64,000 nucleotides of DNA from Escherichia coli O127:H6 str. E2348/69. GTDB taxonomy: Bacteria > Pseudomonadota > Gammaproteobacteria > Enterobacterales > Enterobacteriaceae. Made by a program: the position numbers. The stretch lies in assembly GCF_000026545.1 (NCBI RefSeq), contig NC_011601.1, one strand, 5' to 3'. Positions within the stretch are counted from its first letter, which is position 1; every line of letters starts with the position of its first letter. Below are positions 46,001 to 49,000 of this stretch, piece after piece.

Positions 46001-49000
46001 GAGCAATTAGAAAAAACAGTTCGTTATCTTACACAAACTGTGCATCCACGTAGTGCCGACAATATTGATAATCTGAATAGGTCCGCAGAGTATATAAAAG
46101 AGGCCTTTATCAGTCGCGGAGCCAGAATTACCGCGCAGGATATCCCCATTACGGGTGGCCCCTATAAAAACATTGTTGCTAATTATGGTCCTGCCGATGG
46201 ACCGCTGATTATTATTGGTGCGCACTATGACTCTGTCAGTAGTTATGAAAACGATCAATTGACCTATACGCCGGGCGCGGATGATAACGCCAGCGGTGTG
46301 GCAGGATTACTCGAACTGGCACGTTTGTTACAGCAGCAGACTCCAGGGATTGGCGTCCAACTGGTCGCCTATGCGTCGGAAGAACCGCCCTTCTTTCGTA
46401 GCGATGAAATGGGGAGCGCGGTACATGCAGCTTCGCTTGAGCGTCCAGTGAAATTAATGATAGCGCTGGAGATGATTGGTTATTACGACTCTACGCCTGG
46501 TAGCCAGGATTACCCATCCCCGGCAATGTCCTGGCTTTATCCCGATCGGGGAGACTTTATTGCCGTGGTCGGCAGAATGCAGGATATCAACGCCGTTCGT
46601 CAGGTAAAAGCGGCATTGTTGTCATCCCGGGATTTATCTGTTTATTCTATGAATGCCCCAGGTTTTATTCCCGGTGTTGATTTCTCTGATCACCTTAATT
46701 ATTGGCAACACGATATTCCCGCCGTAATGATTACTGACACCGCTTTTTATCGTAATAAACAATACCACTTGCCCGGTGATATCGCAGACAGATTAAATTA
46801 TCAGAAAATGGCTCAGGTAGTGGATGGAGTTACAACCTTGTTATACAACAGTAAATAATAAAAATTTCTCGAGGCGGATCCAGAAAAAGCAACATGCGCA
46901 TTTTATTTTCTTTCGTCTGTTTTAAGATGCGAAACATGAAATTCAACGGAGGAAAAATAAATGGGAATGATTGGCTATTTTGCAGAAATTGACTCAGAAA
47001 AGATTAACCAACTGCTTGAGTCTACTAAAAAACCTTTGATGGATAATATACATGACACGCTTTCAGGATTACGCCGACTGGATATTGATAAACGCTGGGA
47101 TTTTTTACACTTTGGCCTGACGGGTACATCTGCATTTGACCCCGCGAAGAATGACCCGCTAAGTCGCGCAGTGCTTGGTGAACACAGCCTAGAAGATGGC
47201 ATAGATGGCTTCCTGGGATTGACCTGGAATCAGGAGTTAGCCGCGACAATCGACCGACTGGAATCACTGGATCGAAGTGAGCTGCGTAAACAGTTTTCCA
47301 TTAAGCGACTCAATGAAATGGAGATTTATCCGGGAGTAACCTTTTCAGAAGAGTTAGAGGGGCAACTCTTTGCTTCGATCATGCTTGATATGGAAAAGCT
47401 GATTAGCGCGTATCGACGTATGCTGCGACAAGGGAATCATGCGCTGACGGTTATTGTTGGGTGATGGTGTCAGGGCACCAAAAAAAACCGCCGAACATGT
47501 CGGCGGCTTTCTGACTTACAAACTGACTGTTTACATCAGCGGCATTGCTAACCGCACAATGCTAATCAGCGGTTGTGGCCATACACCCAGCACCAGTACC
47601 AACAGTGCAGAGATCAGCACCACGATACCGCCTGCGCTGTACTGCCAGTTTGATGGTGCATCGCGACCCGGTTGTTCCGGAGCGTGAAGGTATAAGCTCA
47701 CCGCCACGCGCAGGTAGTAGTAGAGGCCGATTGCCGAACCGACAACTACGGCACCCACCAGCCACCACAAGTGTGCCTGGACACCGACCGCCAGCACGTA
47801 GAACTTACCGATAAAGCCCAGCGTCATTGGGATACCAGCCAGTGAAAGCATCATCACCGTCATCACTGCCGCGAGGATCGGACGATGCCAGAACAGACCG
47901 CGGTAAGAGAACAGGGAATCAGCATCCGGGCCACGATACGGGCTGGACATCAGGCTGACCACGCCGAACGCGCCGAGGCTGCTGAACAGATAACCGGCCA
48001 GGTAAACCCCTACCGCTTCCATCGACATCTCGCCGGTTTGCAGCGCAATCAGCGCCACCAGCAGATAGCCGAGGTGAGAGATAGATGAGTAACCGAGCAG
48101 ACGTTTGATATTGGTCTGGCTCAGCGCCATCAGGTTACCGAAGATGATAGAGGCAAAGGCGATAATCGCCAGCACTACGCGAATCGCTTCACTGTCACCC
48201 ACCGGTGCGTAAAGGAACAAACGCATCACCACGCCGAAGATAGCGATTTTGCTCGCCGTCGCCAGGAAAGTGGAAACCGGCGCAGGCGCGCCCTGGTATA
48301 CGTCTGGCGTCCACAGGTGGAACGGCACCAGAGAGAGTTTGAAACCGAGGCCAACAATCATCAGGCCAAAACCTGCCAGCAACAGCGGCTCGTTGAGCAT
48401 ACCGTCGCCGAGGTTTTTACCCAGTGCGACAAACGACAGGTCGCCAGACTGCGCATACACCAGCGCCATACCGAACAGCAGGAAAGAAGACGCTGCGGCA
48501 GAAAGGATGGTGTATTTGATACTGGCTTCCAGCGAACGTTTCTGGCGGAAAGCGTAACCGACCAGGCCAAACAGCGGCAAAGAGATCAGTTCGATACCGA
48601 GGAACAGAGACGCCAGATGGTTGGCATTCGCCAGCAGGATCCCGCCCAGCGCGGCAATTAACACCAACAGGTAGAACTCGTCCTTGTTGTCGTTATAGCC
48701 TTCAAGCCACGGGTAGGCGAAAGTACAGGTGGCGAGGCTCGCCAACAATACCAGCCCGGTGTAAAGCATGGCGAAACCATCAACGCGCATCAGCGGCGTA
48801 ACGTCCATAGCGCCCGCCTGGCCGACAAACCAGAGCGAAACCAGCGCCGCGTTAAGCCCAATAACCGAGAGCGTAGCGTTGAGGAAATGATTGCGTCGCC
48901 ACGCAATGGAGAGCATCACAACCACCACCGTCAAGCCGACGATCAGCAACGGTAGCAGTGCGATCAGGTTTTGTGGAGTTATTGTCATGGCGATTTACGG

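Follow-up and report, generated by a model that had tools for sequence, protein, structure and literature searches.

In the 64,000-nucleotide stretch of Escherichia coli O127:H6 str. E2348/69 analyzed here (contig NC_011601.1; hereafter the window), yfbM and nuoN lie nearly end to end, whereas in K-12 three further genes, yfbN, yfbO and yfbP, stand between them. This difference raises the question of whether genes were lost from the empty arrangement or gained by the occupied one. Our comparison suggests that the empty allele is probably the product of one old deletion that has since become the majority form, and not simply the counterpart of a gain in K-12; the polarity is not proven. The features of the window on which the argument draws are as follows.

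45719-45829, plus strand: remnant of elaD (RBS, ATG and the first ~37 codons); the K-12 alignment runs about 110 bp into the gene and then breaks.
46961-47464, plus strand: yfbM, which encodes a 167-aa DUF1877/YfbM family protein and directly precedes the junction, identified by its ORF, Pfam and the RefSeq E. coli annotation.
47466-47475, no strand: GGTGTCAGGG, the sole sequence specific to the empty allele, which aligns with no occupied allele and is a possible deletion-junction filler.
47476-47487, minus strand: CACC plus A8 (as read on the plus strand), corresponding to the U-tract of the nuo terminator with its conserved distal flank.
47488-47506, minus strand: terminator stem-loop CCGCCGA-ACATG-TCGGCGG, identified by folding, at the end of the nuoA-N operon and potentially bidirectional, serving yfbM.
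47507-47530, minus strand: 24-nt linker from the nuoN stop codon to the terminator stem, aligned in all alleles.
47531-48988, minus strand: nuoN, which encodes the 485-aa NADH:quinone oxidoreductase subunit N and closes the nuo operon, identified by its ORF and the annotation under the match.

YfbM matched PF08974 (DUF1877) over residues 1-163, a full-length match (E = 3.7e-35; 121.9 bits, cutoff 22), and nuoN is 98.0% identical between the window and K-12. The two genes are convergent, and their stop codons are separated by a spacer of exactly 66 bp (47465-47530), a distance for which the ORF listing and the sequence bear out the original prediction. In K-12 MG1655 (NC_000913.3, 2386934-2391505, b2272-b2276), the corresponding stop-to-stop interval measures 2,610 bp, and the annotated order is rbn, elaD, yfbK, yfbL, yfbM, yfbN (minus strand), yfbO, yfbP and nuoN (minus strand). 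The K-12 gene order given in the original prediction, with yfbN-yfbO-yfbP after yfbM, is therefore correct, and MG1655 does carry three extra genes. Both BLAST and a base-by-base alignment showed that homology between the window and K-12 stops at 47465, one base past the yfbM TGA, and restarts at 47483 within the A/U-tract, with 17 bp of the window (47466-47482) facing 2,561 bp in K-12. This alignment gap and the ORF listing agree that yfbN, yfbO and yfbP are absent from the window, as had been proposed. The K-12-only segment has a GC content of 39.8% (window, 52.2%) and no flanking repeats: when the ends of the K-12 cassette were searched for direct or inverted repeats, the matches were all short and at chance level. 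Its annotation consists of yfbN, yfbO and yfbP only, with no mobility gene, integrase, tRNA or target duplication, and an Rfam search of the K-12, UID2309220013 and MOD1-EC7003 loci gave no match.

A second gap lies nearby, between elaD and yfbK, where 7 bp of the window face 2,986 bp in K-12 and the alignment breaks cleanly 50 bp upstream of yfbL. Since the 5′ remnant of elaD has been kept, this gap is a true deletion in the lineage of the window. The two gaps together give a net shortfall of 5,523 bp, in agreement with the 5-6 kb by which the interval had been estimated to be shorter than that of K-12. Both indels fall inside a diverged haplotype block: identity to K-12 is 85.6% in the bin 44000-44500 (elaA), 90-96% from rbn to yfbM and 97-99% in nuo, and the 44000-47000 block as a whole is 90-96% identical. 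In menF-rbn and yfbL, K-12 is closer to the cassette-bearing strain MOD1-EC7003 (95-96%) than to the window (93.6-94.3%). Other observations on this flank are that elaA (44088-44549, minus strand) looks like a very deep allele, and that Rbn has a precomputed Pfam match to Anti-Pycsar_Apyc1 (PF23023) beside its metallo-beta-lactamase family matches. In addition, E. fergusonii and Superficieibacter have a gene for a CheW-response-regulator fusion between rbn and yfbK that K-12 and the window both lack, which makes it one more variable module between rbn and nuoN.

The right-hand boundary of the junction is formed by the predicted nuo terminator. In the nuo sense, the spacer contains a GC-rich stem-loop followed by a U-tract (GCCGCCGA-CAUGU-UCGGCGG, then UUUUUUUU; in a longer reading, ...AAAGCCGCCGA-CAUGU-UCGGCGG-UUUUUUUU...). 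The stem starts 24 nt past the nuoN stop codon, and the terminator is made up of a U-tract of 8 U (47480-47487), the stem-loop (47488-47506) and a proximal tail extending to about 47512. The spacer as a whole folds at -27.1 kcal/mol (z = -4.6 against shuffled sequences). The original prediction had described the spacer as almost entirely the nuo terminator hairpin; the hairpin is indeed present, but the extent was overstated, as the terminator (47480-47512) accounts for about 33 of the 66 nt. A consensus promoter and terminator scan of the window reported 0 terminator sites. We did not accept this negative result, because direct folding reveals both the hairpin and the U-tract, and the miss is probably attributable to the stem reaching into the U-tract.

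Hairpins with U-tracts, sharing the GC-rich stem and differing in their loops, were found 3′ of nuoN in six taxa, K-12/E. coli, E. whittamii, E. fergusonii, a Superficieibacter-like genome and Klebsiella among them. The recurrence of an equivalent hairpin after nuoN across taxa argues for a conserved functional element, at which nuo transcription is predicted to stop and which forms a fixed limit to the variable region on its right-hand side. Given the intact predicted terminator and its 8-U tract, nuo termination is expected to be unaffected in the window. In K-12, the right-hand junction of the cassette (K-12 locus 13995-14006) cuts the U-tract from 8 to 5 U (UUUUUCUG). The CACCA(T) and A-tract distal to the stem are kept in the occupied alleles of E. 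fergusonii, UID2309220013, PapRG-06-5 and the Superficieibacter-like genome, with K-12 as the exception. The spacer between nuoN and the yfbN-like gene in the Superficieibacter-like locus (5673-6000) contains two terminator-like hairpins with a GC-rich, REP-like palindromic sequence between them.

We then considered how common each arrangement is. An 801-bp query spanning the junction detected a contiguous yfbM-nuoN junction in 4,303 of 5,426 complete E. coli genomes at 93.5-100% identity, including 100% to strain ERP001 and 99.8% to ST131 (e.g. MB1159). The K-12-only segment is present in 1,015 of the same 5,426 genomes (19%), always on the chromosome; 985 of these copies are at least 99% identical to that of K-12, and 24 are 80-90% identical. 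IS insertions and local deletions occur among the other ~100 genomes. The window thus carries the majority allele and K-12 the minority allele. Beyond typical E. coli, the empty junction was also found in E. whittamii and in a divergent Escherichia labelled E. coli.

Insertion sequences target the spacer and were also observed in occupied loci. ISEcB1 (IS3 family) has inserted into the hairpin loop of the nuo terminator where the junction is otherwise empty, duplicating ~5 bp (FDAARGOS_1250, 8601-10041; TUM17668), and in TUM17668, IS1 together with ISEcB1 is associated with the loss of everything from rbn to nuoN. Strain 48956 (locus 2066-2844) carries an IS200/IS605 element in the spacer, and in some E. 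coli genomes the cassette is disrupted by IS1 or IS903.

The occupied state is not a single arrangement. Gene-sized indels in the interval from the yfbM stop codon to the U-tract of the terminator distinguish the following alleles.

Window: empty.
K-12: yfbN-yfbO-yfbP.
UID2309220013: yfbN′-yfbO′ without yfbP, at ~85-88% nucleotide identity to K-12.
PapRG-06-5 and about 10 genomes, and also Escherichia sp. MOD1-EC7003 (cryptic-clade), whose sampled locus ends before the yfbO position: SMI1/KNR4-like gene, yfbN″ and yfbO″.
E. fergusonii: SUKH-like gene and yfbN-like gene (71% amino acid identity), without yfbO and yfbP.

Pairwise alignments located the differences at the borders of genes. K-12 and UID2309220013 run colinearly as far as the stop codon of yfbO, after which 942 bp (yfbP) in the former stand against 29 bp in the latter, and PapRG-06-5 is colinear with E. 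fergusonii through yfbM, the SUKH-like gene and yfbN, with yfbO in PapRG-06-5 only. The empty junctions, for their part, have the 10-mer GGTGTCAGGG in common, with 0-2 substitutions, in E. whittamii, the divergent Escherichia labelled E. coli, FDAARGOS_1250 and strain 48956; a sequence common to all of them indicates that the empty allele arose only once. No cassette remnant was recognizable within the 10-mer. An origin by microhomology was considered and rejected, as comparison with the left and right ends of the cassette yielded a 5-nt AGCAC resemblance alone, which is too weak.

The polarity of the change was approached through more distant genomes. In a Superficieibacter-like genome, which has the same NuoM as Superficieibacter sp. 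BNK-5, a YfbN homolog of 46% identity is encoded directly downstream of nuoN, in the order nuoN, yfbN-like, two small ORFs, yfbL, yfbK, cheW-RR, rbn. In a Klebsiella genome, whose NuoM is identical to a Klebsiella multispecies/K. aerogenes protein, a yfbN-like gene is the sole gene between nuoN and rbn. Superficieibacter sp. HKU1 (CP119754.1, 7001-8649) carries two such genes between yfbL and nuoN, one yfbP-like (62%) and one yfbN-like, in an order unlike that of K-12; the same gene pool is therefore tied to the nuoN flank across genera. YfbN identity follows the series 100/87/85/79/71/46%, falling with taxonomic distance. The scan of genome contigs based on YfbM returned four loci only, with Salmonella, Citrobacter and Shigella outside the comparison, and the Escherichia comparison was made without E. 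albertii, whose contig stops 14 nt past yfbM. Within Escherichia, the locus is empty in the clade of E. whittamii and the divergent Escherichia and in most E. coli and occupied in E. fergusonii, MOD1-EC7003 and 19% of E. coli, so that parsimony within this genus alone is ambiguous and in its simple form would favor the empty state as ancestral. A yfbN-type gene next to nuoN across genera, with divergence scaling with distance, points to occupancy as the older state. An old deletion would imply that a yfbN-type gene has long stood beside nuoN while other modules came and went; that a single deletion produced the empty allele, leaving the 10-nt junction sequence; and that this allele persisted, or was spread by recombination across Escherichia, until it became the common form.

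Several observations run against an old deletion. The GC content of the cassette (36.5-39.8%) differs from the 52% of the window, the near-identity of the K-12-type copies (985 of 1,015 at least 99% identical) fits a recent spread, and YfbP lacks intermediate Escherichia alleles, so that the YfbP module may be a later import. Taken together, these features are in keeping with the K-12-type allele, at least, having been imported more recently. They also constitute part of the case for the principal alternative, in which the empty junction is the ancestral state of Escherichia and yfbN-yfbO-yfbP is a low-GC islet acquired horizontally in the K-12 lineage and ~19% of E. coli, perhaps by homologous recombination in the flanks with a cassette-bearing Escherichia. 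This alternative accommodates the low GC of the K-12 cassette (39.8%), the near-identity of its copies despite flanks that differ by 2-7% between the window and K-12, the absence of intermediate YfbP alleles in Escherichia, the empty junction of E. whittamii, a divergent Escherichia and 79% of E. coli, and a left flank that is a deeply diverged haplotype, with that of K-12 nearer to the cassette-bearing MOD1-EC7003 than to the window. It is harder to reconcile with the yfbN-like genes, 71% and 46% identical, that three other taxa have beside nuoN, with a cassette that has no integrase, tRNA, terminal repeats or target duplication, and with divergent cassette alleles (85-92% nucleotide identity) within E. 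coli and a cryptic-clade strain, which argue for long residence. On balance, we consider an ancestral empty state somewhat unlikely.

A recent, strain-specific deletion of yfbN-yfbO-yfbP in the E2348/69 lineage is far less plausible. The adjacent elaD-yfbK gap does indicate that this lineage lost DNA nearby, but the identical junction, including the 10-mer, occurs in 4,303 complete genomes and in other Escherichia, no remnant of the cassette is present, and the close relatives ERP001 and ST131 also lack the cassette; such a recent loss is therefore highly improbable. A false short junction created by a collapsed or mis-joined assembly or by a reading error is hardly credible, given that the 801-bp query aligns over its full length with thousands of independent complete genomes, in one case at 100%. 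The population data exclude both of these explanations, and an old deletion remains the reading that we prefer.

What the window lacks can be described in part from the proteins themselves. YfbN (238 aa) gave UBA-like Pfam matches, all below threshold; its predicted model is confident and all-helical (pLDDT 90.5), with tandem three-helix domains at the N-terminus that are similar to the UBA of TNK1 and the N-terminal domain of EF-Ts, and a C-terminal domain without a match. YfbO (140 aa) is a member of PF27222 with homologs of 46-62% identity in environmental bacteria; its model is very confident (pLDDT 94.5), and comparison by sequence and model returned no significant solved structural relative. 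Searches of the PDB with YfbN and YfbO profiles gave no match. YfbP (282 aa) is a TPR protein that occurs widely but sparsely. Against the PADLOC-DB defense models, YfbN, YfbO, YfbP and YfbM had no match at E <= 0.01, and an NCBIfam search gave no meaningful match. Deletion of yfbO or yfbL was reported to render K-12 resistant to phage N4, with complementation (preprint, bioRxiv 10.1101/2025.09.29.679331), and yfbN and yfbO were reported as overexpression blockers of a retron toxin (preprint, bioRxiv 10.1101/2020.06.22.160242). A literature search on YfbM/DUF1877 returned poultry papers, in which YFBM denotes yolk-free body mass, and no paper was found that treats the yfbM-nuoN site as a hotspot.

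The genomic contexts of YfbO homologs bear on a possible role in immunity. A homolog of 56% identity (locus 2635-5797) is encoded right after a gene with an LHH toxin domain and a pair of SUKH/SMI1-KNR4 genes, with a 103-aa ORF behind it; this is the arrangement of a polymorphic-toxin immunity array. Of the other homologs, one lies after two DUF1963 genes, one near ParE pairs, and two are isolated. A 191-aa ORF of MOD1-EC7003 matched SUKH_5, SMI1_KNR4 and SUKH_6 in Pfam, all below threshold (E 0.01-0.1), and YfbN, YfbO and YfbP had no match to immunity families in Pfam or NCBIfam. Because the YfbO contexts are mixed, toxin-linked in one case and isolated in others, they provide only a hint of an immunity-gene role for YfbO.

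A broader proposal would view the nuoN-distal flank as a site where single-gene modules (SUKH-like, YfbN, YfbO and YfbP) engaged in conflict with phages or toxins have long been polymorphic for presence or absence across species, a polymorphism perhaps maintained by a trade-off. We regard this as improbable. If it were true, the trade-off might, for example, set the requirement of YfbO for phage N4 infection against some other benefit of the cassette, and it would explain why empty and occupied alleles, and the deep elaA-yfbM haplotype block, have persisted across Escherichia.

In practical terms, the absence of yfbN-yfbO-yfbP in E2348/69 is ordinary accessory-gene variation that is already visible in thousands of annotated genomes, and its consequence is a strain without three uncharacterized accessory proteins, nothing more. 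The K-12 gene order should not be taken as the default, as it is the rarer and fuller version of the locus, and most E. coli can do without these three little-known K-12 genes. The nuo terminator serves as a fixed landmark beyond which the content varies. The modular and apparently ancient variable region between rbn and nuoN is mildly interesting for pangenome evolution and opens no new question.

Orphan immunity-gene arrays of polymorphic toxin systems, comprising SUKH/SMI1-KNR4 and other Imm families, have reportedly been described by Zhang, Iyer and Aravind. The cassette genes resemble such arrays in being small, fast-evolving, low in GC and present or absent as single-gene modules, one of which (in PapRG-06-5) is annotated by PGAP as an SMI1/KNR4 family protein; they differ in that the yfbM-nuoN locus is without a toxin gene, as are four of the five other YfbO contexts. 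Compared with a classical genomic island or integrative element, the K-12-only segment has the atypical GC content and the patchy distribution, and it lacks the integrase, att sites and repeats. The hairpin downstream of nuoN resembles intrinsic (Rho-independent) terminators, with a 7-bp GC-rich core stem (13 pairs when the A-U extensions are counted) closed by a 5-nt loop, and with 8 U on the nuo strand and an A-tract opposite. It departs from them on the yfbM strand, where the tail is just CUUUCU; the hairpin could also serve the convergent yfbM transcript, and given this weak tail, termination in that direction is probably less efficient. The K-12 interval shares with the window its flanking genes, the terminator stem-loop and a left boundary one base beyond the stop codon of yfbM, and differs in carrying yfbN, yfbO and yfbP in 2,561 bp versus 17 bp and in having 5 U versus 8 U. 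Further close counterparts are the empty junctions of most RefSeq E. coli and of E. whittamii, which have the same 66-bp architecture, 10-mer and terminator as the window and differ from it in nothing material, with a few point substitutions in other lineages.
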